NCBI GenBank assembly: GCA_020047755.1 | Contig: JAIFNL010000144.1 | Location: 1 to 61,603 of the forward strand | Source: Bacteroidota bacterium | GTDB lineage: Bacteria; Bacteroidota; Bacteroidia; Bacteroidales; JAIFNL01 | Reading direction: 5' to 3' | DNA length: 61,603 nt | Shown: positions 21 through 22,404 of the stretch, one piece after another | Layout: every line of letters starts with the position of its first letter | How positions within the stretch are numbered: position 1 is the first letter of the stretch | Notes under the pieces: model-generated | What the model saw: only the letters and a program-made list of their open reading frames with translations | What the model was told of the DNA's origin: nothing | Database searches by the model: none | Translations under genes and position numbers: made by a program

Positions 21-1145
21 TTATAAACTATGCAAAACCACCAACCGAAACCCCAAATAGCTGAACCTGTAATCGGGATTCCAATTGTAGCGATAAGCAA
101 CACGGCAATAAGTAGCGAAGTAGTTCCAACTACCGCCACGACTGACGCGGTAAGAGCTAGAATTATCAATCCATGCAGAACCATTTTTCGGTGCATTTTC
201 ATAATTACTGTGCCAAGTATCCAAGCACCATTCCCACACATTGCCGCTCATGTCGTAAATGCCCAATGAATTTGCTTTTTGGGCTGTGCCAACTTCATGG
301 GTTATGCTATTTGAATTTGAACTATACCATGCATAATCTTTCAAATCTTTTTCATTGTTTGTTCCTGCCCATTTTGTGCGATTACTTGCACCGCCTCCGG
401 CAGCATATTCCCATTGGGCTTCGGTGGGTAAGCTGTATTTTTTTCCGGTTTTTTGGCTTAGCCAAGTGCAATATTCATTGGCATCGTTCAAACTTACATG
501 AATTACAGGATGATTGTAATCGCTCAAAGGTCGCTGATTTCCGGCTACATCACACTTCCAATTTACACCTTTTTTATTTTTCCATTCTCCGTTTTCATAA
601 ACATAACTTTCCCCTGATTTATCGGCATCGGTTTTATAATTTGTTTCTGATATAAATTGTTCAAATTCAGATACTTTTACTTCGTATTTTCCTATGTGAA
701 AATCGGAAAGGCTTACTTCGTGAGTGGGTTTTTCATCGTCAGGACCTTCGTTACTTCCCATAGTAAAAGTGCCGCCTTTTACAAAAACCATTTCGGGCTG
801 TTCAAAAAGTTTGTTTACGGTAACTTTAAATACAAACTTGTCGCCATCTAATCGGTTGCGGTCGCTAAGCACTTGCCAAGTAATTGTGTTTTTGTTGTTG
901 GCAAGGCGTATGTTTTCGCCTACTGCACCGCTCAGGGTTTTGGGAATTATAGCAAAAGAGCTTCCTTCATTGTTGGAACAAAGCACTTGTACATCAAATC
1001 GGTGGTTGCTTTGCACGCCACGCATATAAAAGTCAATCAGCACCTTAGAGCCTTCTTGTCTAAATGTGGTACTTTCCAAAGTTTGTGCAAGCAAAGTGCT
1101 AACAACTAGCACACTAAACACTAAAAAAGAGAAGAGTTTTTTCAT
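21..1145 (-). CDS. Exported FGE-sulfatase / SUMF1-family domain protein with an N-terminal beta-sandwich domain
   Basis: Signal peptide MKKLFSFLVFSVLVVSTLLAQT. The C-terminal ~260 aa carry FGE-family hallmarks: MVFVKGGTFTMGS, NWKCD, WEWCLDTW, RVSRGGSWNY and LGFRLV. The ORF track starts 4 codons upstream (1157); the ATG at 1145 gives a cleaner signal peptide. Confidence 0.8.
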   Translation of the reverse strand: MKKLFSFLVFSVLVVSTLLAQTLESTTFRQEGSKVLIDFYMRGVQSNHRFDVQVLCSNNEGSSFAIIPKTLSGAVGENIRLANNKNTITWQVLSDRNRLDGDKFVFKVTVNKLFEQPEMVFVKGGTFTMGSNEGPDDEKPTHEVSLSDFHIGKYEVKVSEFEQFISETNYKTDADKSGESYVYENGEWKNKKGVNWKCDVAGNQRPLSDYNHPVIHVSLNDANEYCTWLSQKTGKKYSLPTEAQWEYAAGGGASNRTKWAGTNNEKDLKDYAWYSSNSNSITHEVGTAQKANSLGIYDMSGNVWEWCLDTWHSNYENAPKNGSAWIDNSSSYRVSRGGSWNYFATYCRVAYRYNWNPDYRFSYLGFRLVVLHSL

Positions 1146-1292
1146 AAAACAAACCATTGATAACTAAAAACTCAAAAGTAAATAAATTCCACAATTAACA
1201 AAAAAAATAATTTAATGTTTGATAGCGTAACTTAAGAGTAACCGAAATTCTAAGAAAAGTAAAATTACGCAATTTCCCAAATTCTAATAACA

Positions 1293-1634: not shown

Positions 1635-1859
1635 ATGAAACATATTGATTATTTGATAAAAGAAATAGATATTTTGCCTAAAAACGAATTGCTCTTTTTA
1701 TGGGAAACCCTGCAAAAAAAGATGCAAGCATCGTTGAAAAAAGCAAACCCGCAACCCGAAAAACGACCATTTGCCCTTTGCCAAGGCGAATTTAACGTTT
1801 CGAGTGCCTTCTTCGAACCACTTCCGAGCGAATATTTTGATTTATTTGAGGGCAGATAA
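1635..1859 (+). CDS. Putative antitoxin partner of the downstream PIN toxin
   Basis: 74-aa ORF ending 11 bp before the PIN gene. The acidic and aromatic C-terminal tail (FFEPLPSEYFDLFEG) is typical of small antitoxins paired with VapC-type toxins. Family not identified. Confidence 0.55.
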   Translation: MKHIDYLIKEIDILPKNELLFLWETLQKKMQASLKKANPQPEKRPFALCQGEFNVSSAFFEPLPSEYFDLFEGR

Positions 1860-1870: not shown

Positions 1871-2254
1871 ATGAATTATATTATCGATACTTCCATTTTT
1901 TTATGGTATATTTCGGGCGACAGCAGTTTAACGAAGAAGCATATTGAAATTATTCAAAATAAACAAAATACAATTTACTTGAGCGTAGCCTCAATATGGG
2001 AAGCTACTGTAAAACAAACAATTGGCAAATTAAATTTGCCACATAAAGCTGCATTTTATTTACCCGAACAGCGGGTAAAGCACAAAATATTATCGTTGCC
2101 TATTACCGAAGATGCATTATCGGAATTGCACAATTTGCCCGATATTCACAAAGACCCTTTTGATAGAATCATCATTTGCCAAGCATTAGCTAATGGCTAC
2201 ACAATTTTAACCAGCGATGGCTTAATCAAAAAATATTCTGTCGAAACGATTTAA
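1871..2254 (+). CDS. vapC: PIN-domain toxin (VapC-type type II TA toxin)
   Basis: 127 aa. Acidic PIN signature positions: IIDTS (N-terminal Asp), IWEAT (Glu), DPFDRII and LTSD near the C-terminus. Size and gene pairing fit VapBC. Confidence 0.8.
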   Translation: MNYIIDTSIFLWYISGDSSLTKKHIEIIQNKQNTIYLSVASIWEATVKQTIGKLNLPHKAAFYLPEQRVKHKILSLPITEDALSELHNLPDIHKDPFDRIIICQALANGYTILTSDGLIKKYSVETI

Positions 2255-2386: not shown

Positions 2387-3481
2387 ATGAAAAAATTGTT
2401 TACTCTCTTTGTATTTGTGTTGTGTGCCTTTGGTGTTGAGGCGCAGCAATCGGCAGTTACGCCTGTGGGCGAAATCCATATTTTTGACGATGCACAGCCT
2501 GTGGTAGATACAAAAAAACCGGTAATAACTTTTGCACACGCCAAAAACATGACCGTAACCAGCAACAAATTTACCATCAAAGGCACGGCAAGCGATGAAA
2601 ACGGCATTAGTACGGTTTTTTTGAGTGGCGATATGAAAAATTATGTAGAAGCTTCGGCTTTTGATTTTGAAGTAGATTTGAAAGTAGGCGAAAATAAATT
2701 TACCATAAAAGCCAAAGATACACAAAACAACGAAACCATCGAAAATCTGACCATTTACTATCAAATAGAGCGCAAAGATTATGCCTTGTTATTTTACGTA
2801 AGCGATTACGGTGGCGGCACCAAAGATTTGAAAGGCACAAAAAGCGATGCTTTGGAATTGGCAAAAGTATTAAAAGAAAATTATGGCTTTGAAACCGAAG
2901 TGTGTGCCAATTTCACAGCCACCGAAATGGAAGAAAAGGTAAAAAAGTATGCAAAAAAGCAATACAACAACAACGACCAACTGCTGATTTACTATTCTGG
3001 TCATGGTAAAATAGATGAAGCGTTTAACGAAGGCGCGCTTCTCTGCTACAAAAACACTGAATTTACACACGATGACTTTATAAAATATGCCGATGGCAAC
3101 AAGACAAGTAGCTGCAATCATATTTTAATAGTCATGGACGCTTGCTTTAGTGGCTTAGCTCTGGATAAATTAGATATAGAAAACACCACAAACTACAAAC
3201 CTACGGCAGAAGAATATCTAAACGAATTACTTAGCGAGCAAGTGTGCCGCAAGGTGCTAACTTCGGGCGAAGGTGTAAGCAACACCGGAATAGACGAAGG
3301 GCTATCGGAATTTACCCAAAAATTTATCAAAAGCCTCAAGGAAAACAGCGGAAAATACCACAACATCATTTCGTACAAAGAAATAATTAAGCCTTTAGAG
3401 GACAACTATCCCAACTTAAAAGGAGGTAAATTTAGCAACGACAATTACAACAGTAATTTTATTTTTATTCGCAAAGAGTAA
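2387..3481 (+). CDS. Exported caspase-like (peptidase C14 / orthocaspase) protein with an N-terminal Ig-like domain
   Basis: Signal peptide MKKLFTLFVFVLCAFGVEAQQ. Catalytic dyad contexts are LLIYYSGHG (His206) and ILIVMDACFSG (Cys253), with the spacing expected for the caspase/hemoglobinase fold. Confidence 0.8.
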   Translation: MKKLFTLFVFVLCAFGVEAQQSAVTPVGEIHIFDDAQPVVDTKKPVITFAHAKNMTVTSNKFTIKGTASDENGISTVFLSGDMKNYVEASAFDFEVDLKVGENKFTIKAKDTQNNETIENLTIYYQIERKDYALLFYVSDYGGGTKDLKGTKSDALELAKVLKENYGFETEVCANFTATEMEEKVKKYAKKQYNNNDQLLIYYSGHGKIDEAFNEGALLCYKNTEFTHDDFIKYADGNKTSSCNHILIVMDACFSGLALDKLDIENTTNYKPTAEEYLNELLSEQVCRKVLTSGEGVSNTGIDEGLSEFTQKFIKSLKENSGKYHNIISYKEIIKPLEDNYPNLKGGKFSNDNYNSNFIFIRKE

Positions 3482-3532
3482 TTCGTAAATTAAAAAAAGA
3501 AGCAAATTATTTCCATTCAATCCAACTTGCAA

Positions 3533-3928
3533 ATGACCAACAAATTGCCCGATAATTACATTCAAACCTTTGCCGATTTAAAAGAGCGAATAAAACAGGC
3601 TCAATACAAAAGTCTGGTATCGGTAAACTCGGAAATGGTGTTAGCTTACCTCGATATTGGCAAAACCATTTCAGAAAAAACCAAAATAGGCTGGGGAACT
3701 TCGGTAATCGAAAAACTATCGAGAGATTTACAAGCCGAATTTGTGGGCATGGCTGGACTCTCAGAAAGAAATTTGTACCGTATGAGATTGATTTATGAGC
3801 ATCTAGCAAAAAATCAAATTTCGCCACAGCTTGTGGCGAAATTACCTTGGAGTCATACCGAAGTTATTTTCAGTAAGTTAAAAAACAAAGAGGAACAAGT
3901 TTTTTTTAAGCCAATTTTGATAGCATAA
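3533..3928 (+). pseudogene. Truncated DUF1016 (YhcG-like) gene: N-terminal domain only, PD-(D/E)xK nuclease half missing
   Basis: The translation matches the DUF1016 N-terminal pattern: QAQYKSLVSVNSEMVLAYLDIGK, WGTSVIEKLSRDLQAEF, SERNLYRMRLIYE, LPWSHTEVI. It stops at about 130 aa, whereas family members run about 340 aa. The next gene starts 30 bp later. Confidence 0.65.
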
Positions 3929-3958
3929 CAAACAGATTTTCTTTTTAACCAATTGAAT

Positions 3959-4921
3959 ATGAAAAAAATATACATTTTATTGATAATCAGCTTTTTTATA
4001 ACGCAATTTGCCTTTTCGCAAACCGAATTTAGTGCAGAAAACAAACAAGCTTTTGAAAAAAAACTTTCCGAAATGGGTTTGTTGCAAACACTCAAACTAA
4101 AGGAACTAAAGCAAGAAAAAGGAATTTACTATTTTCGGTTGCAATTAATAGCTGAAAATCAAGACGAAAGCAACGCCGCGTGGACAAGCATGAAAGCGGT
4201 TTTTGGCAAAGAAAAAAACGTATCCTTGCCCGAATATCTGTATTTTTTCTTTATTGGTTGGTTTGAAATTCCCAATCCGCAAAATGTTTTGCTCGAAATA
4301 CGCCACTCGTACCTAACCCAAGAATGTCCGTTTGTGCAATATTATTTTGATGACAAAACAAACGATTTTGTATTGAACGAAACCTTATGCAAAGCCGAAA
4401 TTTCAGAAACCATCAACCTAAACGAATTGAGCTTTTTGACCGAAAAATATGTTCTGGAAAACAAAAAAATTTCAAAAGAACTAATTTACGAAAAACTACT
4501 CAAACGTTTCAAAGAAATTTATGCCAACGGAAAAGGTTTTGAGAAAAAAAGCACAGCGAAGTTTGTTCCAACCTACCGCAAAGGCGCAGATTCATTAACC
4601 TTTGAAGTGAAAAATTTGCAAAAGGAAGTACTAACGCAAGCTGGCGAAAATTTTGTTTACACTATGCTCACTTTTTTAACAGGCGAAACGTATTTGCCTT
4701 TTGAACATTTAAAATTTTCGATAATTTACAACATCGAAAAACAAGAAATAAAAGTAAAAGTAATAGGCAGATACGGCTCCGGCTTGCATGGCAACAAAGA
4801 ATGGAGCGAAATGACAGATATGGACAAAGGATTTCCGGTTTTTATCAGTAACTATTTGAAAAACAAAATAATGCCCGAAATAATACGTACCATAACCAAC
4901 GATACAAATTACGGACAATAA
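3959..4921 (+). CDS. Hypothetical exported protein
   Basis: Long ORF with signal peptide MKKIYILLIISFFITQFAFSQ. No recognised family. Confidence 0.5.
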   Translation: MKKIYILLIISFFITQFAFSQTEFSAENKQAFEKKLSEMGLLQTLKLKELKQEKGIYYFRLQLIAENQDESNAAWTSMKAVFGKEKNVSLPEYLYFFFIGWFEIPNPQNVLLEIRHSYLTQECPFVQYYFDDKTNDFVLNETLCKAEISETINLNELSFLTEKYVLENKKISKELIYEKLLKRFKEIYANGKGFEKKSTAKFVPTYRKGADSLTFEVKNLQKEVLTQAGENFVYTMLTFLTGETYLPFEHLKFSIIYNIEKQEIKVKVIGRYGSGLHGNKEWSEMTDMDKGFPVFISNYLKNKIMPEIIRTITNDTNYGQ

Positions 4922-4965
4922 AATAAACAGTCCTAAAACAAGTTTTTAAAACTCAAAAAAAAACG

Positions 4966-5403
4966 ATGAAAGAAACACGATTAAAAACAATCATTTTTGT
5001 ATTTATGCTCATCGCCAAAATAGCTACTCTGCTGGCTATTTTGGTAGAATACGCAACCGATGGACTCGAAAAAAGCGAAATGTTTAGTTCTATTGCGCTT
5101 ATAATGCCACTTTTTACAGTTTATTTGAGTGTTATTATCAAAGATTTGATGGACAATCCATACAAAGAAAACAAAGAAATAAAATACGTAAAAACATCTA
5201 TTAGTGTACTTGCATTTGTTGTTTTTCCGCTGTATGCACTGGCTATTATTTGGCTGGTTGTTTTGGCAGGAAGCGGCAAAATAAGCGGCGAAGAGTTGCA
5301 ACCTTATTTAGGCATCATCGAAAGCATTTTTGGCATTTACGTGGGGCAAATTATACTAACTCTTTTTGGAAATAAAGAAACAAAAATAAAAACTGCTGTT
5401 TAA
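4966..5403 (+). CDS. Hypothetical small integral membrane protein (about 4 TM helices)
   Basis: Four hydrophobic segments in 145 aa. No recognised family. Confidence 0.5.
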   Translation: MKETRLKTIIFVFMLIAKIATLLAILVEYATDGLEKSEMFSSIALIMPLFTVYLSVIIKDLMDNPYKENKEIKYVKTSISVLAFVVFPLYALAIIWLVVLAGSGKISGEELQPYLGIIESIFGIYVGQIILTLFGNKETKIKTAV

Positions 5404-5433
5404 TTCTTAACTCACAATTAACTGCCAATACTC

Positions 5434-6036
5434 TTGTTTACAGACCAATACAAAACAATAAAAACAGCTTCGGAGGGTTTTTATAAAGACAAAGCCAGTA
5501 AATTCTACTCCTTTGCATTTCCGGTAGAAACCGAGGAGGAGATAAACGAGCATCTGAAAGAACTGCGCAAACGCTTTTTCGATGCTCGCCACCATTGCTA
5601 CGCTTGGCGTTTGGGTGCCGAAAAAACGCATTTTAGAGCCAACGACGATGGCGAGCCTTCAAACTCGGCAGGTGCGCCTATTTTGGGGCAAATCCGCTCG
5701 TTCGATTTAACCAATATTTTAATTGTAAATGTACGCTACTTTGGAGGCACGCTTTTAGGCGTAAGTGGCTTAATCAATGCCAACAAAACCGCCGCCGCCG
5801 AAGCCATAAAAGCCGCCGAAATAATAAACAAAACCGTAAATGCACTACTTTCGTTTTCCTTTGACTATATAGAAATGAATGATGTAATGAAAATAATCAA
5901 AGATGAAGACTTAAAGCCTATAAATCAAACCTTTGGCAATAATTGCTCCATGCAATTGAGCATACGCCTTGCGCACATAAACAAGGTAAAAGAACGGCTT
6001 TTGAAAGTAGAAAGTTTGGTTTTTGAACAAGAATAA
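5434..6036 (+). CDS. yigZ: YigZ / IMPACT-family protein (UPF0029)
   Basis: Family pattern YKTIK...KASKFYSFAFPV, ARHHCYAWRLG, NDDGEPSNSAGAPIL, VRYFGGTLLG. The start appears to be TTG, so the exact start is uncertain. Confidence 0.8.
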   Translation: MFTDQYKTIKTASEGFYKDKASKFYSFAFPVETEEEINEHLKELRKRFFDARHHCYAWRLGAEKTHFRANDDGEPSNSAGAPILGQIRSFDLTNILIVNVRYFGGTLLGVSGLINANKTAAAEAIKAAEIINKTVNALLSFSFDYIEMNDVMKIIKDEDLKPINQTFGNNCSMQLSIRLAHINKVKERLLKVESLVFEQE

Positions 6037-6185: not shown

Positions 6186-9100
6186 ATGAAAGAGACAAGC
6201 TTAAAGAAATCAGATGTTTTCATTTCTTACGGACGTAAAGAAAGTAAAAATTTTGCTGCAAAATTGCACAACAAACTAAAAGAAAAAGGTCTCGAAGTTT
6301 GGTTTGACCAAAATGATATTCCATTAGGTATTGATTTTCAGGAACAAATAGACAATGGAATAGAAAAAGCAGAAAATTTTATTTTTATTATTGCTCCGCA
6401 CGCCATCATGTCTGAATTTTGCTTGAAAGAAATCGTTTTAGCCTTAAAATGCAACAAGCGAATTATTCCTATTTTACACATCGAGCCTAGCACAAAAGAA
6501 GTTTGGGATAAATTACACCCCGCAATTGGCAAAATTAACTGGGTGTATATGCGTGAAAAACAAGATACTAGCAAGCCACTAAACGAATGGGAATCCATCG
6601 ACGATTTCGAAAAAGCTTTTGTTGGGCTTTGGGATTTGCTCAATTTTCACAAAGAATATGTATCGAAACATACCGAAATACTAATAAAAGCACTCGATTG
6701 GAAACATAATAAAAAGAAAGATGAATTTTTGCTAATAAACGACGAGCGAACAGATGCCGTAGAATGGCTAAATACCAAGTTTGAAAAAACACAACCTCCT
6801 TGTTTGCCGTCAGATTTGCACTGCTCGTACATTTGCGAAAGTACCAAATTTGCATTCAACGGTTGGACTGAAATTTTCTTTTCATACGTGCGCAAAGACC
6901 TCGAAATACTTGACAAAATACGTGAAGCTCTTGAACGAGAAGCTCTTACTACTTGGTTTGATAGTAGCGATTTGAAAACAGGCGTAAAATTTTCGGGTGC
7001 CATCAACAAAGGAATTGAGCAAGCCGACAATCTTATTTTTCTAATTTCGCCCGAATCTATTGTTTCAGAATACTGCCTGCAAGAGCTCGACTATGCCCTG
7101 AAATTAAATAAACGGATAATTCCGCTTTTGATAAAAGAAACGGATATAAATGCAATTCCAGAATCGCTCAAAAAACTGCAATTTCTTAATTTGATTGAAA
7201 AAAATGTAGAAGTAAAACCCAAAGAATTAACTCCTTTTCAAGAAAATATGAACAGCCTTATCCGACAAATAAACCTGGATAAGGATTATATTTATTTGCA
7301 CAAAAAATTATTATCTTTAGCTTTAAAATGGAAAAAACACAACGAAAATCACAGCATTCTTTTGCGAGGTTATTCGCTCGAAAAAGCTGTTAATTGGCTA
7401 AATGCCGGAAAAAAAAGAGAGATAAACCAACCCATAGAATTGCACGAGGAGTTTATCAATGCAAGTATGAAATACAACGAAGATGCTTCTTCGTTCGATT
7501 TGTTTGTGAACTTTTCGCCCAACAATACCGACTACTTGCGCCAACTTTGGAACGAAATGCACACATTCGACAAATCGGTTTGGGTGGACAAAGACCATCT
7601 TGATTTACAAAGCGACGAAGCAATGCAACATCAAGTTTTAATGGACGGAATTCAAAAATCGGAAAATTTTTTATGCATCATTACCCCAGATTTGCTAAAA
7701 GATGAGAAATTAATACACAATATCGAAACTGCCGAAAAACAAAACAAGCGAATCATTAGCTTATTATTTGACGATTTAGAACCAACTCAAATTTTACCCG
7801 AAAATTTAAATAAAATAGTAATCGATTTCAATAGAAAACGAGTTGATTTCAACGCTGCTTGTGTCGATTTGGCACGAATATTAAATACCGACCGTGAGCA
7901 CGTACAGCAACATACTAAATGGTTGCAAAAATCACTGGATTGGCAAAAAGATAAAGATGCCGGAAAACTTTTGAGAGGTGTCGATTTTATTTTAGCAAGC
8001 AATTGGATAGAGGAAGCAGTAGAACAAAACAAATCACCCAAAGTTACAGACTTACAAACTGACTTTATTGAAGCAAGTAAGCAAGCACTTGATGCCGAAG
8101 CTCGCAAAAAGAAAAGAGTACAAGTAATGATGAAAGTGGGCTTGGTAGCTATTAGTATTTTGTTGGTAATAGCCATATTTGCAGGTGCTTACGCACTCAA
8201 GCAAACGCTCATAGCCAATCATAATTTAAAAATAGCAAAATCGAACAATCTCATTTTTTCGTCAAAAGAAATGGAAGTAAAAGACCCAACAATTGCTTTG
8301 GGAATAGCCATTGAAGCTCGAAAATTATATGAAAATGAGAATGTTGAAAATACTCTCCTGGCTATTTACAGCAAACACGTTTTTTATAAAATTGCAGCAC
8401 GACATGAATCGACCATTAACTCGGTTGCCTTTTCGCCCAACGAAGACCGTTTCATTACAGGAGCTGACGATAACAGCATGGCAATTTGGGATTTTTCAGG
8501 CAAATTAATCAACAAACAATCTTTGCACGATGCTCCGATTTCGTGTGTAAAATATTCGCCTAGTGGAAAAATAATTGCATCGGGTTCGCTCGATGGAAAA
8601 ATTATTTTGTACGACAAAAATGGTAACAAAAAAATGATAATTGAAAAAATAAAGCAGGATATTACTAGTATCGATTTTTCACCCAACGAACAATTTTTGG
8701 TTTTAGGAACAAATTTAGGCTTTATAGGTACTTACAATTTAGCAACCGATTCGCTTTATACATGGGAAGCTCACTCGCGTGCAATTAGATGTGTAACATA
8801 TTCATCTGACGGCAATTATATAATCAGTGGGTCAAACGATAAAACCGCCAAAGTGTGGGACTTGAATGGAAAAAAGAAACTAACCTTCGAAAAACATATC
8901 GAAAGTGTTACTTCCTTAGCCACTTCGCCCAATAGTCGCTACATTTTGAGCGGCTCAGGCGACAATACGGCTATGCTTTGGGACTTAAAAGGCAAAGTAT
9001 ATGCCCAAATGAAAGGACACGAAAACTGGATAAATTCAGTGCGATTTAGCACTCACGGCACACGTTTAATTACGGGTTCTGATGACGGAACTGTTTGTAT

Positions 9101-10976
9101 TTGGGATACTTTAGGAAATAAACTCAATGTTTTGAAAGGGCATTCGGGCAAAGTACTGTCGGTTGATTTTTCGAGCGACAACAAACACATAGTTAGTGTA
9201 GGAAACGACCAAACGGCGCGCTTGTGGAATATAGCCGAAACCGAAACCAGAATGTTTGATACAAACATAGCAAGTAACAGATACATAGACATTTCGCCCG
9301 ACGGAAAATACATAGCAAGCGGCGGACAAGACAAAATAGTGCGCATTTGGACTAGCTCGGGGCATTTAATCAAAGAACTAAAAGGGCACTCTGATAAAAT
9401 TAATTCGGTAAAATTTTCACCTGACAATAAATATTTAGTTTCGGCTTCTTTTGACAAAACAGCTATTATTTGGTCGTTGGAAACCTATAAAAAAAAGGTA
9501 ATCAAAGGGCACAAAGATTTACTTTACTTTGCGTCATTTTCACCCGACAGCAAGCAAATTGTTACAGCCTCGCGCGATTTGACGGCTCGCACGTGGAATC
9601 TGGAAGGCAAAAAAATAGATGTTTTCACAGGACACGATGATTTTGTGCGGTGTGCCGTTTTTTCGCCCGACGGTAAAATGATTGCAACAAGCTCACTCGA
9701 CAAAACAGCTCGCGTTTGGAACATCAAAGACAAAAGCTACATTTTGTTTAAAGGACATACTGACCTAGTAACCAGCGTAGTATTTACACCCGACAGCAAA
9801 AATATTATTACCGCATCAGCCGATAAAACCATGCGCTTGTGGGACATGGAAGGCAACGAAAAACAAATATTCATTGGACATACTTTGCCTATTTATTCTA
9901 TCGTAATTTCAAAAGATGGAAGCAAACTACTATCAAGTTCGTGGGACAAAACAGCCTGCTTGTGGAATATTAACGGCGATTTGCTACAAATTTTCGTTGG
10001 AGCAGAAAAATATTTATGGTCGGCGCAATTTTGCGACGAAGAAACATTTGTTGCCATTACCGGTGATGATGGCTATATTCGCAAGATTAAAGTAAAAAAA
10101 CCACTTAACGAGTTTGAAAAAGACAAAAATTATGAACCTTTAACCATCAATCAAAAACTTTGGAACCATATTTTGTTTTACGAAGACTTAGATACGCTCA
10201 AAAACCCCAAAGAATTACTCGACGGTGTTAATTATTATACCGAATTAGCAAATAAAACAAGAAGTAGTATAGAAAAACTATCACTTCTAAACAATTCATT
10301 GGCGTTGATTGAAAAAATTTGCACACTAAGTCCTACAGTCAACTATTTTACTACGCACATAGATGTATTGTTAGAAATGAATAAATGGAGCAAAGTTAAA
10401 ACAGCTAATGATTTGAAAATAAATGAAATAACAAAAAAAATAATTGCCATTAACAACAAAGACGAATTGATGTTGGCTGCAAAATATTATCTCAAAAAAA
10501 CAACAGAACAAAACAATGCAACAAAAAAATATGAGTTTGAAACCAAAACAATTGCCGTTTTTGAAAAGATAATAAAAAAATATACTACCAACAAACCATT
10601 AATGAACGAAGTAGCCGAAATCTGCGGCTGGGATTTACCGTATTTTCTATTGATAGAAAAAAAATACGATAAAGCTCGCAAGTCGTGCGATTTAGCTATT
10701 AAAGCCGATTCTACCGTAAATACAGCTTATACCAATTTGCCGCTCATTTATATGCTAGAAGGAAATTATGCCGAAGCCGAAAAAATTTATCTCAGCAAAA
10801 TGAACCTTACGTTCAATTTTGAAACCAAAGAAACTTTCGGTTCTGTATTTTTAAACGACATAGAAGACTTGGAAGCTCGCGGAATAAGCTGCCCTGAATT
10901 TTTGAAAGCCAAACTGTTACTTGCAGAAAAAGCAGAAGGGCTTAAAAAAAGCGAAGAACCAGAGTTGGAAGAATGA
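6186..10976 (+). CDS. Giant multidomain protein: (TIR + helical linker) x3, one TM helix, 14 WD40 repeats, TPR-like C-terminal region
   Basis: Single 1596-aa ORF. TIR motifs are DVFISYGRKES...SEFCLKEI...KRIIPIL, then EIFFSYVRKD...SEYCLQEL...KRIIPLL, then a degenerate third copy. The TM helix is VMMKVGLVAISILLVIAIFAGAYAL, preceded by ARKKKR. Fourteen units fit H-x4-V-x-FSPDG-x5-S-x-D-x-T-x-x-W. Confidence 0.9.
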   Translation: MKETSLKKSDVFISYGRKESKNFAAKLHNKLKEKGLEVWFDQNDIPLGIDFQEQIDNGIEKAENFIFIIAPHAIMSEFCLKEIVLALKCNKRIIPILHIEPSTKEVWDKLHPAIGKINWVYMREKQDTSKPLNEWESIDDFEKAFVGLWDLLNFHKEYVSKHTEILIKALDWKHNKKKDEFLLINDERTDAVEWLNTKFEKTQPPCLPSDLHCSYICESTKFAFNGWTEIFFSYVRKDLEILDKIREALEREALTTWFDSSDLKTGVKFSGAINKGIEQADNLIFLISPESIVSEYCLQELDYALKLNKRIIPLLIKETDINAIPESLKKLQFLNLIEKNVEVKPKELTPFQENMNSLIRQINLDKDYIYLHKKLLSLALKWKKHNENHSILLRGYSLEKAVNWLNAGKKREINQPIELHEEFINASMKYNEDASSFDLFVNFSPNNTDYLRQLWNEMHTFDKSVWVDKDHLDLQSDEAMQHQVLMDGIQKSENFLCIITPDLLKDEKLIHNIETAEKQNKRIISLLFDDLEPTQILPENLNKIVIDFNRKRVDFNAACVDLARILNTDREHVQQHTKWLQKSLDWQKDKDAGKLLRGVDFILASNWIEEAVEQNKSPKVTDLQTDFIEASKQALDAEARKKKRVQVMMKVGLVAISILLVIAIFAGAYALKQTLIANHNLKIAKSNNLIFSSKEMEVKDPTIALGIAIEARKLYENENVENTLLAIYSKHVFYKIAARHESTINSVAFSPNEDRFITGADDNSMAIWDFSGKLINKQSLHDAPISCVKYSPSGKIIASGSLDGKIILYDKNGNKKMIIEKIKQDITSIDFSPNEQFLVLGTNLGFIGTYNLATDSLYTWEAHSRAIRCVTYSSDGNYIISGSNDKTAKVWDLNGKKKLTFEKHIESVTSLATSPNSRYILSGSGDNTAMLWDLKGKVYAQMKGHENWINSVRFSTHGTRLITGSDDGTVCIWDTLGNKLNVLKGHSGKVLSVDFSSDNKHIVSVGNDQTARLWNIAETETRMFDTNIASNRYIDISPDGKYIASGGQDKIVRIWTSSGHLIKELKGHSDKINSVKFSPDNKYLVSASFDKTAIIWSLETYKKKVIKGHKDLLYFASFSPDSKQIVTASRDLTARTWNLEGKKIDVFTGHDDFVRCAVFSPDGKMIATSSLDKTARVWNIKDKSYILFKGHTDLVTSVVFTPDSKNIITASADKTMRLWDMEGNEKQIFIGHTLPIYSIVISKDGSKLLSSSWDKTACLWNINGDLLQIFVGAEKYLWSAQFCDEETFVAITGDDGYIRKIKVKKPLNEFEKDKNYEPLTINQKLWNHILFYEDLDTLKNPKELLDGVNYYTELANKTRSSIEKLSLLNNSLALIEKICTLSPTVNYFTTHIDVLLEMNKWSKVKTANDLKINEITKKIIAINNKDELMLAAKYYLKKTTEQNNATKKYEFETKTIAVFEKIIKKYTTNKPLMNEVAEICGWDLPYFLLIEKKYDKARKSCDLAIKADSTVNTAYTNLPLIYMLEGNYAEAEKIYLSKMNLTFNFETKETFGSVFLNDIEDLEARGISCPEFLKAKLLLAEKAEGLKKSEEPELEE
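6210..6485 (+). other. TIR domain 1 (catalytic-type Glu82 retained, codon 6429-6431)
   Basis: DVFISYGRKESKNFAAKLHNKLKEKGLEVWFDQNDIPLG...ENFIFIIAPHAIMSEFCLKEIVLALKCNKRIIPILH. Confidence 0.8.
6870..7140 (+). other. TIR domain 2 (catalytic-type Glu300 retained, codon 7083-7085)
   Basis: EIFFSYVRKDLEILDKIREALEREALTTWFDSSDLKTG...DNLIFLISPESIVSEYCLQELDYALKLNKRIIPLL. Confidence 0.8.
7494..7780 (+). other. TIR domain 3, degenerate (Glu position is Asn, no FxSY start motif)
   Basis: FDLFVNFSPNNTDYLRQLWNEMHTFDKSVWVDKDHL...ENFLCIITPDLLKDEKLIHNIETAEKQNKRIISLL. Anchoring on KRII puts N where the Glu of CLKEI / CLQEL sits. Confidence 0.6.
8403..10095 (+). other. 14 WD40 repeats, enough for two 7-bladed beta-propellers
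   Basis: I counted 14 units from HESTINSVAFSPNEDRFITGADDNSMAIWD to WSAQFCDEETFVAITGDDGYIRKIKV. Confidence 0.85.
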
Positions 10977-14129: not shown

Positions 14130-17045
14130 ATGAGCGAGCAATTAGTTAAATTTATCATCACACTCAAGGGAAATGAAATTAATAAATTTGCATTTTCAAA
14201 AGGAAAGAGAGTTAGTATTATTTTGGGCAAAAACAAGTCGAAAGTAGATTTTGCAGTAGAATCGAATTACGTTTCGGGTACACATTTAGAACTTATTAAA
14301 GATGAGAATGATAACCTCTTTGTCAAAGATTTGGATTCTACCAATGGAACTTATGTGAACAACAAAAGAATAACTTCGGGGCAGTTAGTTTCCATAAAAA
14401 TTAATGATATTATTTCTTTTACAGAAGGCTCAGATATTCAATTACTTGTACTTCCGCCTTCGTTTGGTAGCCAAAAATCGGAAAATAATCCCACAAATAA
14501 TTTTGTAAATTCAGAAAACAATTATGCTAATAATAAAATAAAGTCTTCTGGTAATTTCTCACAAAAAACAGAAATTGTAATAGGGCGAAATGCCGATTGT
14601 GATTTTATAATTGATAATCAAATTGTTTCGCGCCGACATGCCATTATTTTTAAAGACTCTGACGGTTTGTACACTATTAAGGACAATAACTCTTCAAACG
14701 GAACATACATCAACAATTCATTACTCACAGGAAGCCGAAAAATTAGTAATTCAGACAAAATTACTATAGGAAAACAAACATTCACCTTAAGTGATTTAAT
14801 GGGCGGAAAGGCTCAGAATTTAGCCAATCAAACACCCGATAATAGCACTAGTTTAGCCCAACTTTTGAGCAACAAAAATACCTTATTAATTGGTAGAGCA
14901 CAAACTGCAGATGTTGTAATTAACGACAACTTGGTTTCGCGCCAACACACCCGAATTACCAAGGAAAACGGAAAATATTTTGTACAAGATTTAGGTTCTA
15001 CCAACGGAACTTTTTTGAACGAAAACAGAATCCAACAAAAAGTAGAGTTAAAAGTTGGTGATGAATTACGTATTGGCTTGAAAGTGTTTAGTTTAGAACA
15101 AGCTGAAAAAGCCTTGAGCGACACAACGGCTATTCGTGCAATTAACGTAACTAAAAAGTTTTCAAATGGTTATGTGGGATTAAAACCGATGAGCGTAAAC
15201 ATTCCGAGCAGAGCATTTATTGCACTCATGGGACCTTCGGGATGCGGAAAAACTACGCTCATGAACACACTCAACGGCGACAATCCGGCAACAGGCGGAA
15301 GTGTTCATATTCACGGACTTGAGCTTACCAAGAACTATTCGATGCTAAAGCAAAAAATAGGCTATGTACCTCAAGATGACATAGTTCATAGAGATTTGAC
15401 AGTAGAAAGCTCGCTTTATTATGCTGCCAAACTGCGCATGAACCCCGACACTACCGATCAAGAAATAACGCAACGCATTGACGAAGTGCTTACTAGCCTC
15501 AAAATCAACAGAACAGATATAAGAACCAAGCCCGTAGGGAAGCTTTCAGGAGGGCAACGCAAGCGTGTTTCAATTGCCGTAGAACTTTTAAACAAACCTA
15601 CTATTTTATTTCTCGATGAGCCAACCTCACCTCTCGACCCCGAAACCATTGACGGTTTTTTAACTAGTATCAAAGAGCTTACCGAATTAGAAGAAACCAC
15701 AGTAATAATGGTTACTCACAAACCTTCGGACTTAAATTATGTGGACAGAGTAATATTCTTAGGTACAGAAGGTTATCAAGCTTTTTATGGTAGCGAAAAT
15801 GATTTATACAATCATTTCGATATCAAAGACCGAAATATTATTGGCATTTATTCGTTGCTAAGTACCAAAGAAAAAGCAAACGAATGGGGAGAAAAATGGA
15901 AAATAAAAAGCCAAACAACAACACAAGAGCTAAAAGAAGAAAAAGGTTTTGCCCAAAAACCAGAAAAAGTTTCTTGGTTTTCGCAACTCTTCTGGCTCAC
16001 CAAGCGTTATGCAAATATCAAACTCAACGACAAAGGCAATATGGCATTGCTAATGTTGCAACCCATTATTATACCACTTGCACTTATCTATTTATTTGAT
16101 AAACTGCAACTTGGAGTGCTGTTTATGATGGCAATTTCCGCCATTTGGTTTGGAGTAAGCAACGCGGCAAAAGAAATTGTGAGCGAAATTCCAATTTACA
16201 AGCGCGAACGCATGTTCAACCTGAATATTACCACCTACATGCTCTCTAAAATCTTGGTTTTATCGGTCATTGCCCTCATTCAAGTAACTATTTTCTTGCA
16301 AATTGTTCAGTTACGTTTTCTAAGCGACGAAATTCACATTGTGAATATGTTTCAAGCCACTTTTTTCTTGTTTTTATTGTCTTTTTCAGCTACTTTATTA
16401 GGTTTGCTTTTGTCAGTTATTTTTGATAATGCTGAAAAAGTAATGACTTTTATTCCAATCATTCTAATACCGCAAATTATATTTTCGGGTGTTATTGCCG
16501 ATATTGATTCTAAAGACAAAGAGCTTTTTAGTTACACCATGTTTGGACGTTGGGGAACGGAAGGACTGGCGCGAATACAAAGTGATTATACTGGTTACAA
16601 GCATATTAAATCAGATACCCTTTTAATTAAAATTTCCGAAAAACAAGACACCATTCCAACAATAGACACAATAATGCCTAATGGAATGACAATTTTAAAA
16701 GATAAAATAATATCAATACCCGAATTTAAAGACAGTATTCAAAGCGAAACTCTTATAAAAAGTGTTTATAATTCTGTTCCTGAAGTAATTATATTTTCTG
16801 ATACTTTATTAATTACTAACGATGGAAAAGACGAAAATACGCAAAATGACACAATTCCTTATAAAAAAACAGGCGATGCAAAGTTTAAAGGCGCAGACCC
16901 TTTGAAAAATTTGAAATTTTATGAAAACGCTGAACTGTTAAATAAATTCGATAGTTTAGAAAAAAATATTCTGGCAATAAGTTTGATTGATTTATTGTTG
17001 TTAATTTCAATTTATGTGATTTTAAAAAGGAAAGATACAATTTAA
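14130..17045 (+). CDS. Triple-FHA ABC exporter (FHA x3, ABC ATPase, ABC-2/ABCG-type permease, fused in one polypeptide)
   Basis: FHA1 is at about nt 14208-14420 (GKN...VSGTH...DSTNGT). FHA2 is at 14568-14783 (IGRN...VSRRH...SSNGT). FHA3 is at 14880-15086 (IGRA...VSRQH...GSTNGT). ATPase motifs are Walker A GPSGCGKTT, signature LSGGQRKR, Walker B ILFLDEPTS and H-loop VTHKP. Several TM helices follow, then a final C-terminal TM. Confidence 0.9.
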   Translation: MSEQLVKFIITLKGNEINKFAFSKGKRVSIILGKNKSKVDFAVESNYVSGTHLELIKDENDNLFVKDLDSTNGTYVNNKRITSGQLVSIKINDIISFTEGSDIQLLVLPPSFGSQKSENNPTNNFVNSENNYANNKIKSSGNFSQKTEIVIGRNADCDFIIDNQIVSRRHAIIFKDSDGLYTIKDNNSSNGTYINNSLLTGSRKISNSDKITIGKQTFTLSDLMGGKAQNLANQTPDNSTSLAQLLSNKNTLLIGRAQTADVVINDNLVSRQHTRITKENGKYFVQDLGSTNGTFLNENRIQQKVELKVGDELRIGLKVFSLEQAEKALSDTTAIRAINVTKKFSNGYVGLKPMSVNIPSRAFIALMGPSGCGKTTLMNTLNGDNPATGGSVHIHGLELTKNYSMLKQKIGYVPQDDIVHRDLTVESSLYYAAKLRMNPDTTDQEITQRIDEVLTSLKINRTDIRTKPVGKLSGGQRKRVSIAVELLNKPTILFLDEPTSPLDPETIDGFLTSIKELTELEETTVIMVTHKPSDLNYVDRVIFLGTEGYQAFYGSENDLYNHFDIKDRNIIGIYSLLSTKEKANEWGEKWKIKSQTTTQELKEEKGFAQKPEKVSWFSQLFWLTKRYANIKLNDKGNMALLMLQPIIIPLALIYLFDKLQLGVLFMMAISAIWFGVSNAAKEIVSEIPIYKRERMFNLNITTYMLSKILVLSVIALIQVTIFLQIVQLRFLSDEIHIVNMFQATFFLFLLSFSATLLGLLLSVIFDNAEKVMTFIPIILIPQIIFSGVIADIDSKDKELFSYTMFGRWGTEGLARIQSDYTGYKHIKSDTLLIKISEKQDTIPTIDTIMPNGMTILKDKIISIPEFKDSIQSETLIKSVYNSVPEVIIFSDTLLITNDGKDENTQNDTIPYKKTGDAKFKGADPLKNLKFYENAELLNKFDSLEKNILAISLIDLLLLISIYVILKRKDTI

Positions 17046-17092
17046 TTTTTTAAAATAAAATAAAATAATATAAAAATATAAAAATTTGAATT

Positions 17093-17785
17093 ATGAAAAA
17101 ATGCAACAACGGACATTATTACAATCCCGAAAAAAATAGCTATTGCCCTTATTGCCCGCAACCAGAAGGGCAAAATAATATCGACAGCAACAAAACCAAG
17201 CTTCAAGATAATAAAGGAGACAAAACCGAATTATTGGGTGGAAATAGCAGTAATCCTTTGAAAACTAGTGCTTTTGAGCCGCAAAAAAACGAACATAACA
17301 AAACACAGATTTTCGATAACAACGGTAATGAAACTGAAATATTTGACAAATCGAGCAAAAAATCAAGCGATTTTGCCGAAAGCAATCAGCAAGATTGGAA
17401 CAAAACTTACATAGGTATAAGCGAAGACGAGACAGATGACGATTTTGGTGCGCAAAAAGAAGCTCCCAGAGCACAGCGCAAACTGGTTGGCTGGCTTGTT
17501 TCATTTACAATTGACCCGCTTGGCATCGATTTTAGGCTCTACGAAGGGAAAAATATGATAGGTTCGGCACCCGGAAACGAAATTACAATACTTGGCGACA
17601 AGCTCGTTTCGTCGAAACACGCCACTATTTTGTTTAGAAATGGAAAATACAGATTAAAAGACGAATTTTCGACCAACGGAACCTATTTAAACGGTTCAGA
17701 CCTTGACGATGAAGTACTTAACCTTACTGACGGCGATATTATAAAAGTAGGTTCTACTCTGCTAAAATTCCGCTCGGCGTTTTAA
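17093..17785 (+). CDS. Zinc-ribbon, disordered linker, FHA protein
   Basis: N-terminal CNNGHYYNPEKNSYCPYCP (CxxH...CxxC ribbon). The middle is low-complexity and rich in N/K/S/E. The C-terminal FHA reads IGSAPGNEITI...VSSKHATI...FSTNGTYLNG. Confidence 0.8.
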   Translation: MKKCNNGHYYNPEKNSYCPYCPQPEGQNNIDSNKTKLQDNKGDKTELLGGNSSNPLKTSAFEPQKNEHNKTQIFDNNGNETEIFDKSSKKSSDFAESNQQDWNKTYIGISEDETDDDFGAQKEAPRAQRKLVGWLVSFTIDPLGIDFRLYEGKNMIGSAPGNEITILGDKLVSSKHATILFRNGKYRLKDEFSTNGTYLNGSDLDDEVLNLTDGDIIKVGSTLLKFRSAF

Positions 17786-17862
17786 ATTTTAATTTCTTTT
17801 GGTATTTTTTCTTAAAAGATAATTAATTAAAAGATTAATTTAAAATTATAAAAATATAAGTG

Positions 17863-19494
17863 ATGAAAAAGCTAAAAATTACCTTATTTTTTATTTTAAC
17901 TGTACTTTTTGCATTTTCGCAACAAATAGGAAAAGTAAGTAAAGTAAATGTGGATAAATTTCCGAAAGTAGAATTTACATTAAATTTATACAAACCTGAT
18001 GCTAAGGAAAATAAAGATTTTGAAATTTTTGAAAACCAGCAAAAAATTCAATTTACTTTTAGCAGAACAAATGCGCCCATTGCCGATACTCAAAAGCATA
18101 TTTTGATACTTTTTGAAGACATGACTCATACATCTCATGCCCTGCAACGCGAATATTTTCAATATGTTCTGGAAAATTCACTGCCCAAGTTTGTGAATAA
18201 AGGCGATAAGGTAAATATAGCCGTTTTTGACAGAAACAGAGGAAGTGAAACTTCTTTGCGCTTTTTGTTGGAAAACTATACCGACGATGTGGAGTTGTTA
18301 AAAAATGCAGCTAACACATTTAGAAGTATTTACGATGAACATAGCAACCAAAAAAGTTCAGAACTTTACGACGCGCTAGACGATGGAATGGCTGATTTGC
18401 ATGAAAAGTTTCCCAATAAAAATACCTTCATTTTGGAACTTTCGGCAGGTTTCAATTTAAGCGCGAACAATGCTATAACGCAAGAAGGCTTAATTGCGAC
18501 CTCGCGCGAGTACAGAATACCCATTTACTCAGTGTATTACAACATTTACGACAATAGAACAGACAACGATTATGCAGAGAAATCGTTTGGATTGTTTTTT
18601 CTTTCAGACAAAAGCAGAAACGATAAAGATGCTGCAAAAGAGAAAGTTATAGAATTTATGACCAATGCTTTAAAGCGTCATTATGGATTTAACTACACTT
18701 TTAGTTACGATACAAAAGTAGAACAAGACGGAAAATTGCATACTGTTTCGATAAAGGTTGATGGACAAGCAATTGAGGAAAAATTTCAAGCACCAGCTTG
18801 CGATATTGCTTGTTTCATAAAAAAGAATACAATTTTAGTAGCTTTAATTCTAATTATTATCATTGGTTTTATTATTGGGCTCGTTCTTTTTTTGAAAAAG
18901 AAAAAAGAAAAAGAATTAGCCTTGCAAGCTGAAAAAGAAGCTCAACAAACAGAAAAACTTAGGCAAATAGAGATTCAACGCCAAAAAGACAAGGAAGAAC
19001 AAGTAAAAAAACAAGAGCTACAACAACTTGAAAATGAGCGTTTAGAGCAAAAAATGCGCGAAGAGCGTGAAGAACAGTTGCGTTTTCAACAACGTTTGGA
19101 AGCTGAAAAACTTGCAGAACAGCGTCAGCATGAACAACAACTACTTGAAAAACAACAAGAAGAACAAAACAAGCGACTCACAGAAGAAATGCGCAACAAC
19201 CGCGGAGGTTTCCCTTCGTTGAAAATTGTTTCGCATGGATTGAACAAAGATTTTGTAATAAATAAGCCTATTATTTCTTTTGGAAGAGAAAAACATTTAA
19301 ACGATTTCTTTTTGCAAGAACCCACAGTTTCGGGCAAACATTTTGAAATTCAATATTTTGGAGGTGATTATTTTATTCAAGATGTAGGAAGCACCAATGG
19401 AACAAAAATAAATGGCATGGCAGTTCGTAGGCACAAACTAAAGCACAACGACATTATTCAAGCCGGAAAAGCACAAATGATGTTTGTTTGGTAA
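17863..19494 (+). CDS. Signal peptide, vWA-like domain, TM helix, Q/E/K/R coiled coil, C-terminal FHA
   Basis: Signal peptide MKKLKITLFFILTVLFAFSQQ. The vWA-like strand/helix pattern has a degenerate MIDAS: HILILFEDMTHTS, KVNIAVFDRN, SELYDALDDGMADL, FILELSAGFN. The TM is ILVALILIIIIGFIIGLVLFL followed by KKKKEKE. About 100 aa of coiled coil follow. The FHA reads FGREKH...VSGKHFEI...GSTNGTKING. The vWA call is inference. Confidence 0.75.
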   Translation: MKKLKITLFFILTVLFAFSQQIGKVSKVNVDKFPKVEFTLNLYKPDAKENKDFEIFENQQKIQFTFSRTNAPIADTQKHILILFEDMTHTSHALQREYFQYVLENSLPKFVNKGDKVNIAVFDRNRGSETSLRFLLENYTDDVELLKNAANTFRSIYDEHSNQKSSELYDALDDGMADLHEKFPNKNTFILELSAGFNLSANNAITQEGLIATSREYRIPIYSVYYNIYDNRTDNDYAEKSFGLFFLSDKSRNDKDAAKEKVIEFMTNALKRHYGFNYTFSYDTKVEQDGKLHTVSIKVDGQAIEEKFQAPACDIACFIKKNTILVALILIIIIGFIIGLVLFLKKKKEKELALQAEKEAQQTEKLRQIEIQRQKDKEEQVKKQELQQLENERLEQKMREEREEQLRFQQRLEAEKLAEQRQHEQQLLEKQQEEQNKRLTEEMRNNRGGFPSLKIVSHGLNKDFVINKPIISFGREKHLNDFFLQEPTVSGKHFEIQYFGGDYFIQDVGSTNGTKINGMAVRRHKLKHNDIIQAGKAQMMFVW

Positions 19495-19577
19495 ATTCTA
19501 AATTCTATTATTTTAATAATACTCTAATTTTAAAATTATAAAAAAATAATACTTCTATACAATAAATATAAAACAAA

Positions 19578-21578: not shown

Positions 21579-21594
21579 TGCAAAATAATAAGAA

Positions 21595-22404
21595 ATGTAT
21601 CCATTTGTAAAAGAAAATTTAGAAATAAAGCGTGAATTAGGACGTGGCGGAACGGCAGCAGTTTACTTGGCTTGGGACAAGTGGGCAAAAAAGCAAGTTG
21701 CTATAAAAGCCTTATTTAAAACACGTTACGAGGATAGAATGATTCGCGAAAAATTCAAACAAGAAGCCAATTTGTATCTTTACCTCGAACACCCCAATAT
21801 AGCCGATTTGACCGATTACATTGTAACGCCCGAAACGGATTATATCGTGATGGAATACATTCAAGGCATTAATTTAGAGGAATATATACAAACCAAATCG
21901 GGACCAATTGCCGACGAAAATTTGTTCAAAATATTTACGCAAATATTGCACGGTGTAGCTTATGCTCATCATCAAAAAGTTACGCATTTAGATATAAAAC
22001 CAAGCAATATAATGGTAACTAATGACCTAATAGTGAAAATTTTAGATTTTGGAATTTCGTCCTCGAAAGATGAGAAAATAGAAAATGCCAAGCGCAGAAT
22101 GGGCACGCCCATGTACATGAGCCCCGAGCAAATAGATATGAAAAATGTAGGCAGACAAAGCGATATTTATTCGCTGGGAGTAACTCTACATCACATGGTT
22201 ACAGGTCAATTGCCTTACAAAGGCGGCTCGATAAAAGAAATTTTTCATAAAATTAAGAACGAAAAATTGCCTAAAATTAGAGATATTTATCCTCATGCAA
22301 ATATAAAATTGCAACCAATAATAGATGCTGCAACAGAGAAAAATTTGCAAAAGCGATACAAAACATGCGAAGAATTTGAGTATTTTCTTTCGCAAGCAGT
22401 TTGA
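21595..22404 (+). CDS. Soluble Hanks-type Ser/Thr protein kinase (kinase domain only, non-RD)
   Basis: LGRGGTAAVY (G-loop), VAIKAL (Lys), HLDIKPSNIMV (HLD instead of HRD), ILDFGIS (DFG), GTPMYMSPEQ. 269 aa with no TM. Confidence 0.9.
   Translation: MYPFVKENLEIKRELGRGGTAAVYLAWDKWAKKQVAIKALFKTRYEDRMIREKFKQEANLYLYLEHPNIADLTDYIVTPETDYIVMEYIQGINLEEYIQTKSGPIADENLFKIFTQILHGVAYAHHQKVTHLDIKPSNIMVTNDLIVKILDFGISSSKDEKIENAKRRMGTPMYMSPEQIDMKNVGRQSDIYSLGVTLHHMVTGQLPYKGGSIKEIFHKIKNEKLPKIRDIYPHANIKLQPIIDAATEKNLQKRYKTCEEFEYFLSQAV

Follow-up and report, generated by a model that had tools for sequence, protein, structure and literature searches.

The gene at positions 6186-10976 (forward strand) of contig JAIFNL010000144.1, a 61,603-nucleotide (nt) stretch from a Bacteroidota bacterium of the order Bacteroidales (assembly GCA_020047755.1; the whole stretch is referred to below as the window), encodes a protein of 1596 amino acids (aa) in which three TIR domains, each followed by a helical linker, precede a single transmembrane (TM) helix, 14 WD40 blades and a long C-terminal extension. 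The protein belongs to a large family that looks like an undescribed bacterial counterpart, by analogy, of the animal Toll-like receptors (TLRs). The reading to which slightly better than even weight is given here is that of a single-pass receptor of type II (N-in), with a propeller sensor outside the cytoplasm that would gate a cytoplasmic TIR array acting as an NAD+-cleaving enzyme (NADase) or signal generator.

The open reading frame (ORF) is intact and starts with ATG, in agreement with the first-pass annotation, which had been made from the bare sequence, and an identical protein is recorded on a Joint Genome Institute (JGI) metagenome contig (sample 3300033514) whose flanking genes match those of the window. 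The domain layout proposed at that stage (three TIR domains, one TM helix, 14 WD40 blades and no NTPase) holds, and the segments of the gene are the following.

6186-10976 (+): whole gene, 1596 codons plus stop; a 150-bp AT-rich spacer separates it from the upstream yigZ
6210-6644 (+): TIR1 (aa 9-153), TIR_2 match of 87.9 bits; alternating strands and helices in the AlphaFold2 (AF2) secondary structure
6645-6863 (+): linker 1 (aa 154-226), three-helix module with one conserved His and two conserved Trp
6864-7274 (+): TIR2 (aa 227-363), TIR_2 match of 82.7 bits
7275-7493 (+): linker 2 (aa 364-436), carrying an LLRG motif
7494-7886 (+): TIR3 (aa 437-567), degenerate, TIR_2 match of 33.4 bits
7887-8105 (+): linker 3 (aa 568-640), its final helix unbroken into the TM helix in the AF2 model
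8124-8180 (+): TM helix (aa 647-665 by Kyte-Doolittle hydropathy, the hydrophobic run extending to aa 671), preceded by ARKKKR
8181-8399 (+): membrane-adjacent helical stalk (aa 666-738), from the TM helix to the first blade
8400-10100 (+): 14 WD40 blades (aa 739-1305), by Pfam WD40 and a repeat hidden Markov model (HMM)
10101-10973 (+): C-terminal orphan region (aa 1306-1596) with abundant Leu, Lys and Glu and only sub-threshold TPR matches

The N-terminal triplication noticed at first pass is borne out, with units spanning aa 1-226, 227-436 and 437-650 that can be aligned over their whole length with 27-34% pairwise identity, a similarity that far exceeds chance, and the three helical motifs quoted for it lie as described at aa 162-195, 372-405 and 576-608. 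Scanned separately against Pfam TIR_2 (PF13676), whose cut-off is 28 bits, all three units are matched at the scores listed above. The AF2 model of aa 1-700 (predicted local distance difference test, pLDDT, 84.5; predicted template-modelling score, pTM, 0.67) has helices after each TIR domain, and Foldseek aligns it with single-domain TIR structures (SARM1 TIR, Hydra TRR-2, MyD88) at target-normalised template-modelling scores of about 0.6-0.86; model and matches together identify the flavodoxin-like alpha/beta fold of TIR domains. Compared as a whole with the PDB by Foldseek, the N-terminal model retrieves single TIR domains only, and no match to the array.

The closest solved relatives in a PDB sequence search are active NADase TIR domains, namely those of Cat1, SARM1, AbTIR and PdTIR, and the best match of TIR2 is the filament-forming TIR domain of Cat1. 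Specifically, E82 of TIR1 (nt 6429-6431), aligned with the Glu of the SARM1 'KEIV' motif, and E300 of TIR2 (nt 7083-7085) fall in line with the Glu of both SARM1 and Cat1, and the catalytic Glu of the alpha-C helix is hence recognisable in TIR1 and TIR2 but not in TIR3. Among the 107 family members with three full units (U1, U2 and U3, counted from the N-terminus), Glu occupies this column in 107 of 107 first units, 107 of 107 second units and 102 of 107 third units, and the query protein is the sole member with Asn (Asn512; E512N, nt 7719-7721). In addition, its TIR3 has Asp in place of the BB-loop Gly together with a 2-aa insertion, reads NFSPNN where the SYSRAD motif is expected, and belongs to a unit only about 39% identical to the U3 of the family, against a family mean of 60%. 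The earlier count of three TIR domains therefore stands, while the lost catalytic Glu and BB-loop Gly of the third had been overlooked. Since TIR3 is catalytically degenerate, at most two active sites are possible in this protein, and from the residues present TIR1 and TIR2 are its candidate enzymes, with TIR3 probably serving as a membrane-proximal structural spacer. A dead unit closing a head-to-tail array would be expected if neighbouring TIR domains form composite sites in cis, and the retention of the Glu in U3 across the family suggests that arrays also interact between molecules.

The same residues bear on the possibility that the array is a non-enzymatic scaffold or adaptor which recruits proteins at the membrane, in the manner of animal TLRs and MyD88. 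Adaptor TIR domains (MyD88, TLR1, TLR6) are also among the Foldseek matches, the query TIR3 is retained despite its lost catalytic residue, and the unique linker modules could serve for docking. This role is nevertheless judged very unlikely, given the invariance of the catalytic Glu in TIR1 and TIR2 and its 95% conservation in TIR3, the NADase identity of the best sequence relatives, and the SLATT, SLOG, TPR-S and Nuc_deoxyri_tr2 genes linked to relatives (described below), which are nucleotide-signal components.

The linkers form a module of their own. Modelled alone by AF2, the linker is a confident three-helix module (pLDDT 94.6, pTM 0.80) in which His24, Trp34 and Trp56 (linker numbering) are invariant. 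The model has no fold match in the PDB by Foldseek at E<=0.001, the sequence has no Pfam or NCBIfam match, and a linker HMM run against 884 proteins encoded next to relatives of the gene finds no convincing carrier that lacks a TIR domain; the three-helix linker thus appears to be private to the TIR-array family.

In the AF2 model, one continuous helix (aa 622-686) leads from linker 3 through the membrane segment. The hydrophobic helix VGLVAISILLVIAIFAGAYAL lies at aa 651-671, with the best 19-residue Kyte-Doolittle window at aa 647-665 (mean 2.7), and the ARKKKR patch that had been reported before it is located at aa 639-644. Six Lys/Arg residues are found within the 15 residues N-terminal of the helix in the query, and across the family the flanks carry on average 5.3 such residues on the N-terminal side versus 2.7 on the C-terminal side, the former exceeding the latter in 169 of 185 proteins. 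This family-wide positive-inside bias supports in silico the topology proposed at first pass, with the TIR domains in the cytoplasm and the propellers outside the membrane. Moreover, 10 of the 120 best matches carry CHASE2 behind the TM helix, and several of these continue with further TM helices; CHASE2 is a known extracytoplasmic sensor domain flanked by TM helices. The Lys/Arg bias, the CHASE2 variants and the outer-membrane barrel genes found at Bacteroidota loci (see below) therefore support an N-in topology, which predicts a cytoplasmic location for the TIR domains and an extracytoplasmic one for the C-terminal part.

Were the hydrophobic segment a mere anchor, or the topology different, the WD40 region could instead sense a cytoplasmic target, in the manner of the NLR proteins (nucleotide-binding, with leucine-rich repeats) and the signal transduction ATPases with numerous domains (STAND) but without an NTPase. 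Such sensing is what WD40 and TPR arrays usually do in STAND immune proteins, where they act in the cytoplasm; the PADLOC match of the WD40 region is the cytoplasmic-type candidate HEAT-ARM_XIII, and the topology is known from prediction. Still, the chance of this arrangement is slim indeed: the segment is a single helix of 19-21 residues with high mean hydropathy and a strong positive-inside bias, and a single TM helix must cross the membrane once, so that both sides cannot be cytoplasmic; the TIR domains, for their part, require cytoplasmic NAD+, and CHASE2 and the outer-membrane partner genes indicate an envelope location.

Beyond the stalk, Pfam WD40 scores 388 bits, and the repeat HMM scores 13 blades (aa 739-1271), with a degenerate fourteenth fitting at about aa 1272-1305, in keeping with the 14 blades counted at first pass; this number would correspond to two seven-bladed propellers. 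A canonical family member, of about 1,350-1,400 aa, ends in a tail of some 35 aa after exactly 14 blades, and in the relatives the stalk between the TM helix and the next domain is longer and coiled-coil-like. In a single cyanobacterial protein, blades compared with one another share 41-84% identity (mean 55%), and in the query 33%. The tail of the query (about 290-325 aa) has no counterpart in any of the other family members examined, and a search of 5.8 billion proteins with the C-terminal 307 aa retrieves a single short relative (P0121, 199 aa, 33% identity). The description of this region as TPR-like is unproven, the best match being TPR_1 at 16.7 bits (E 0.0066) against a cut-off of 27.8, and the region is treated as an orphan. 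Pfam and NCBIfam scans of every segment contain no NTPase domain; the central NTPase of STAND proteins (NACHT, NB-ARC and similar) is accordingly missing, as had been recognised when the protein was set apart from the classical STAND/Avs design.

The design is not singular, and the query belongs to a large family with a fixed order of units. A search with aa 1-740 yields 812 matches among 8,000 scored candidates, and the best 120 cover 56-98% of the query (mostly at least 84%) at 560-846 bits. A unit HMM detects three full units in 107 of 121 proteins (the query plus these 120), and in relatives whose sequence extends beyond the last unit there is usually a TM helix at about aa 620-690. The family is defined here by U1, U2, U3, a TM helix within about 40 residues and then a variable C-terminal domain, an arrangement that the query displays with U1 at aa 10-225, U2 at 228-429, U3 at 438-633 and the TM helix at 647-665. 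Among 1.84 billion representatives of protein clusters built at 50% identity, 5,056 clusters are matched at E<=1e-30, a number in which strong matches to single TIR units are counted too; the best 150 of them all exceed 788 bits, most across the whole three-unit profile. When each species is represented by a single genome, relatives occupy at least 565 loci; the host and neighbour counts given below refer to the best 77 of these. About 60 of the 77 are cyanobacterial, mostly from filamentous species, and the others come from Cytophagales (Bernardetia, Flexibacter), Bacteroidales and metagenome-assembled genomes (MAGs) of Gemmatimonadota, in addition to a small number of MAGs whose placement is uncertain or unlikely. 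The highest identity to the query among the matches listed is 47%, at locus L002 of a Bacteroidales MAG, and a scan of viral contigs returned no relatives. In databases the relatives bear generic names ('TIR domain-containing protein', 'WD40 repeat protein'), and no description of the triple TIR-linker/TM/sensor architecture was found in the searchable literature.

Units in the same position are 52-63% identical among the 107 proteins, and units in different positions 32-38%, whether or not they belong to the same protein; judging from these identities, the triplication is ancient and position-specific. Position-specific HMMs find the units in a fixed order in which U3 always adjoins the TM helix. 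Shorter arrays consist of one unit (U3) or two (U2 U3), and longer ones follow the patterns (U1 U2)n U3 or U1 U2 U3 U2 U3. Giant relatives occur in Cytophagales at loci L013 (6524-13861, 2445 aa) and L051 (5927-13795, 2622 aa), where 9-10 TIR-linker units arranged as (U1 U2)n U3 precede the TM helix. The outer part evolves differently: in 53 canonical members the mean identity is 67% for the N-terminal array and 45% for the WD40 region, the N-terminal part being the more conserved in 99.6% of pairs, and across the family the region after the TM helix may be WD40, CHASE2 or blocks of several TM helices. Genomes with several paralogues of the receptor occur, and between tandem copies identity is 77-97% over the N-terminal part and 42-85% over the WD40 part; L026 and L035 carry three tandem copies each, the third L035 copy being cut off by the end of the locus.

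Clustering of the 884 neighbour proteins from the 77 loci shows which genes recur beside the receptor. The commonest is a DUF4231/SLATT gene with two TM helices, present at 15 of the 77 loci within a few kb of the receptor gene and in most of them directly adjacent (upstream, downstream or divergent); besides the free-standing form there are fusions to a phage lysozyme (PF00959), to a GH19-like domain that scores below the Pfam cut-off, and to a C39-like peptidase. C-terminal hydrolase fusions of this kind are found at L015 (14228-15784, GH19-like), L030 (7211-8641, PF00959) and L035 (454-2778, GH19-like plus Peptidase_C39_2), the first two directly adjoining the receptor genes and the third about 4.6 kb upstream, and the pairing of SLATT with a wall hydrolase resembles that of holin and endolysin. 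LSDAT_prok (SLOG) and patatin genes are each found at 5 of the 77 loci, side by side at 3, and TPR-S proteins also at 5. SLATT, SLOG and TPR-S are signal-responsive effector modules of TIR systems and of systems of the type of CBASS (cyclic-oligonucleotide-based antiphage signalling systems). Taken together, SLATT, SLOG, patatin or TPR-S genes occur at 21 of the 77 loci, all cyanobacterial.

At four Bacteroidota loci (L002, L052, L013, L012) a signal-peptide-bearing beta-barrel protein of the outer membrane (PF13568) is encoded as well. Its gene lies immediately downstream of the receptor gene in the first three, with a gene for a lipoprotein next in line in L002 and L052, and about 1 kb upstream of the receptor gene in L012. 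The downstream barrel genes (L002 4251-6629, L052 13480-15937, L013 13904-15055) are co-directional with the receptor gene and their products have a TPR-like N-terminus. A Nuc_deoxyri_tr2-like gene overlaps the receptor start at L012 (9613-10011; Bacteroidota) and lies 63 bp upstream at L063 (9108-9515; Gemmatimonadota), and P0103 and P0120 carry this domain as an N-terminal fusion to the receptor, a fusion/fission link to a second nucleotide-processing domain. An ABC ATPase cluster common to 11 loci was dropped as generic domain similarity, and response-regulator and kinase neighbours were likewise dropped as generic.

In the favoured reading of an envelope-sensing TIR receptor, a ligand (part of a phage, or a signal of danger or of self versus non-self) would bind the propellers in the periplasm or envelope and would either alter the oligomeric state of the receptor or shift the TM-linker helix. 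The TIR array would then rearrange to form composite TIR-TIR active sites, at which TIR1 and TIR2 (E82, E300) would cleave NAD+. The output would be NAD+ depletion, or an ADP-ribose-derived signal to an effector encoded elsewhere, and either could lead to growth arrest or cell death. A more specific version is tentative and, as a whole, doubtful: the protein would be an outside-in immune or cell-death receptor, analogous to a TLR, in which the periplasmic WD40 region senses an envelope cue (phage, debris of lysed neighbours) and switches on a pre-assembled cis TIR array through the rigid linker-TM helix; the signal so produced would, in many cyanobacteria, lyse the cell by opening SLATT pores to which wall hydrolases are fused. 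As background to this version, filamentous cyanobacteria are thought to have a periplasm that is continuous along the filament.

With the same architecture and topology, the role might not be antiphage at all: the protein could be a death receptor for cell-cell contact, kin recognition or development in multicellular or filamentous bacteria, sensing periplasmic signals of neighbouring or lysed cells and triggering regulated death or lysis. The host range described above, dominated by filamentous cyanobacteria and including filamentous or gliding Cytophagales (Bernardetia, Flexibacter), fits this proposal, as do the lysis-type output suggested by the fusions of SLATT with lysozyme-type wall hydrolases near relatives, the lack of relatives on viral contigs, the genes for a secreted caspase and an FGE-sulfatase protein near the query gene, and the statistical tie of similar conflict systems to the multicellular habit (PMC7159879). 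However, antiviral receptors are just as typically marked by sensors that diverge fast and by paralogues in tandem, the combination of TIR and SLATT is experimentally antiphage, and self and non-self ligands are not separated by any data; a role of this kind is accordingly considered unlikely.

The proposed envelope-sensing receptor can be compared with several known systems; it would work like the oligomerisation-gated TIR NADases and the Thoeris sensors, and in its overall logic it resembles a TLR. Type VII Thoeris is a validated system of TIR plus SLATT, in which the ThsB TIR protein acts with the SLATT effector ThsH through a cyclic ADP-ribose (cADPR) signal (bioRxiv 10.64898/2025.12.03.692087). 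The likeness consists of TIR domains with the catalytic Glu and of the SLATT genes near 15 of 77 relatives; the present family differs in being a membrane receptor of 1,350-1,600 aa with three fused TIR domains and a predicted extracytoplasmic sensor. A Thoeris effector gene is absent from the window and present at the 21 cyanobacterial loci mentioned above. Type III Thoeris, with several TIR proteins and a SLOG effector, shares the feature of several non-identical TIR domains that apparently act together, and SLOG (LSDAT_prok)-patatin genes lie near 5 relatives, but the TIR domains of the query are fused in cis, in fixed order, and anchored in the membrane. Membership in ThcB4 (NCBIfam NF058526) was rejected at 72.8 bits, over the TIR part only, against an equivalog cut-off of 220.

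The oligomerisation-activated NADases (SARM1, AbTIR, TIR-STING, TIR-SAVED, Cat1) resemble the query in providing its best PDB sequence matches, in the aligned Glu and in the TIR fold. Their sensors (ARM, STING, SAVED, CARF) are cytoplasmic and nucleotide-binding, with one TIR domain per chain, whereas a chain of the query contains three TIR domains and unique helical linkers, and its sensor is predicted to lie across the membrane. Animal TLRs likewise have an ectodomain made of repeats, a single TM helix and a TIR domain in the cytoplasm; the query, however, is N-in type II rather than type I, has WD40 rather than leucine-rich repeats and three TIR domains rather than one, and these are probably enzymes rather than adaptors, so that the resemblance is best regarded as analogy and not as whole-protein homology. 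Lastly, STAND/NLR proteins with TIR and WD40 domains (bacterial Avs-like proteins, fungal and plant TIR-NLRs) have in common with the query a TIR effector and a rapidly diverging repeat sensor, but the query lacks NACHT, NB-ARC or any other NTPase and has a TM helix between effector and sensor.

Several points weigh against the envelope-sensing receptor. The query TIR3 is dead, and the query hence deviates from its family; the topology rests on prediction; we know of no classical G-beta-type WD40 propeller that has been experimentally localised to a bacterial periplasm; and no experimental data on family members were found in the literature. An effector-type partner gene is also absent throughout the 61-kb window, in which HMMs of the recurrent neighbour families (DUF4231/SLATT, LSDAT, patatin, TPR-S, outer-membrane barrel, lipoprotein and Nuc_deoxyri_tr2) have no match in the six-frame translation of its 61.6 kb. 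The earlier statement that the gene has no partners is thus true of the window and fails for the relatives, which have the linked SLATT, SLOG-patatin, TPR-S, barrel and Nuc_deoxyri_tr2 genes. Nor is the gene set in a classical defence island, its surroundings consisting of a PIN pair, the secreted caspase and FGE-sulfatase proteins and housekeeping genes only.

To our knowledge, the characterised bacterial TIR systems sense infection in the cytoplasm and are activated by oligomerised single-TIR proteins. The combination of three fused, position-specific TIR domains with a private linker, a TM helix and a fast-evolving outer domain suggests envelope sensing and activation within the chain, and, if true, it would add a new sensing compartment to TIR immunity as well as a mode of TIR activation by rearrangement within a chain rather than by growth of a filament. 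The concentration of the family in multicellular bacteria and the linkage to SLATT-lysozyme and SLOG-patatin genes offer a testable model of regulated lysis, and the query copy, with its naturally dead TIR3 and no linked effector, is a natural variant for judging the contribution of each TIR position.

As to the immediate surroundings of the gene, the upstream neighbour (5434-6036) is a yigZ-like gene (UPF0029/Impact_N), as had been proposed, and closes an apparent three-gene unit (3953-6036, forward strand; gaps of 44 and 30 bp) whose other members are a secreted 322-aa protein without family and a 145-aa protein with four hydrophobic helices (4-TM). Small genes without known family lie downstream of the TIR gene. 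A scan for sigma-70 promoters and terminators did not rise above the shuffled expectation, and its result was not used.

Farther upstream, an FGE-sulfatase-domain protein (21-1157, reverse strand) and a caspase-like Peptidase_C14 protein with a Glucodextran_B-like beta-sandwich (2387-3481, forward strand) both have N-terminal signal peptides and are therefore predicted to be exported; these two domains are typical of the conflict systems of multicellular bacteria. Between them, a 74-aa ORF (1635-1859, forward strand) is directly followed by a PIN-domain protein (1871-2254, forward strand), and the two resemble a toxin-antitoxin pair of the VapBC type. The long AT-rich intergenic region from the FGE-sulfatase gene to this pair contains two arrays of 8-nt tandem repeats, AAATTGTT (four copies, 1292-1324) and CAATTTAG (4.8 copies, 1523-1560), whose units are near reverse complements of each other. 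An ORF at 3527-3928 (forward strand) retains only the N-terminal domain of DUF1016 (the YhcG-like nuclease family) and is probably a gene remnant. Downstream, positions 14130-27686 hold a dense Ser/Thr phospho-signalling cluster composed of a fusion of three FHA domains with an ABC transporter (14130-17045), two FHA proteins (17093-17785 and 17860-19494), a PP2C phosphatase (19578-21578) and two Ser/Thr kinases (23445-25016 and 26103-27686).

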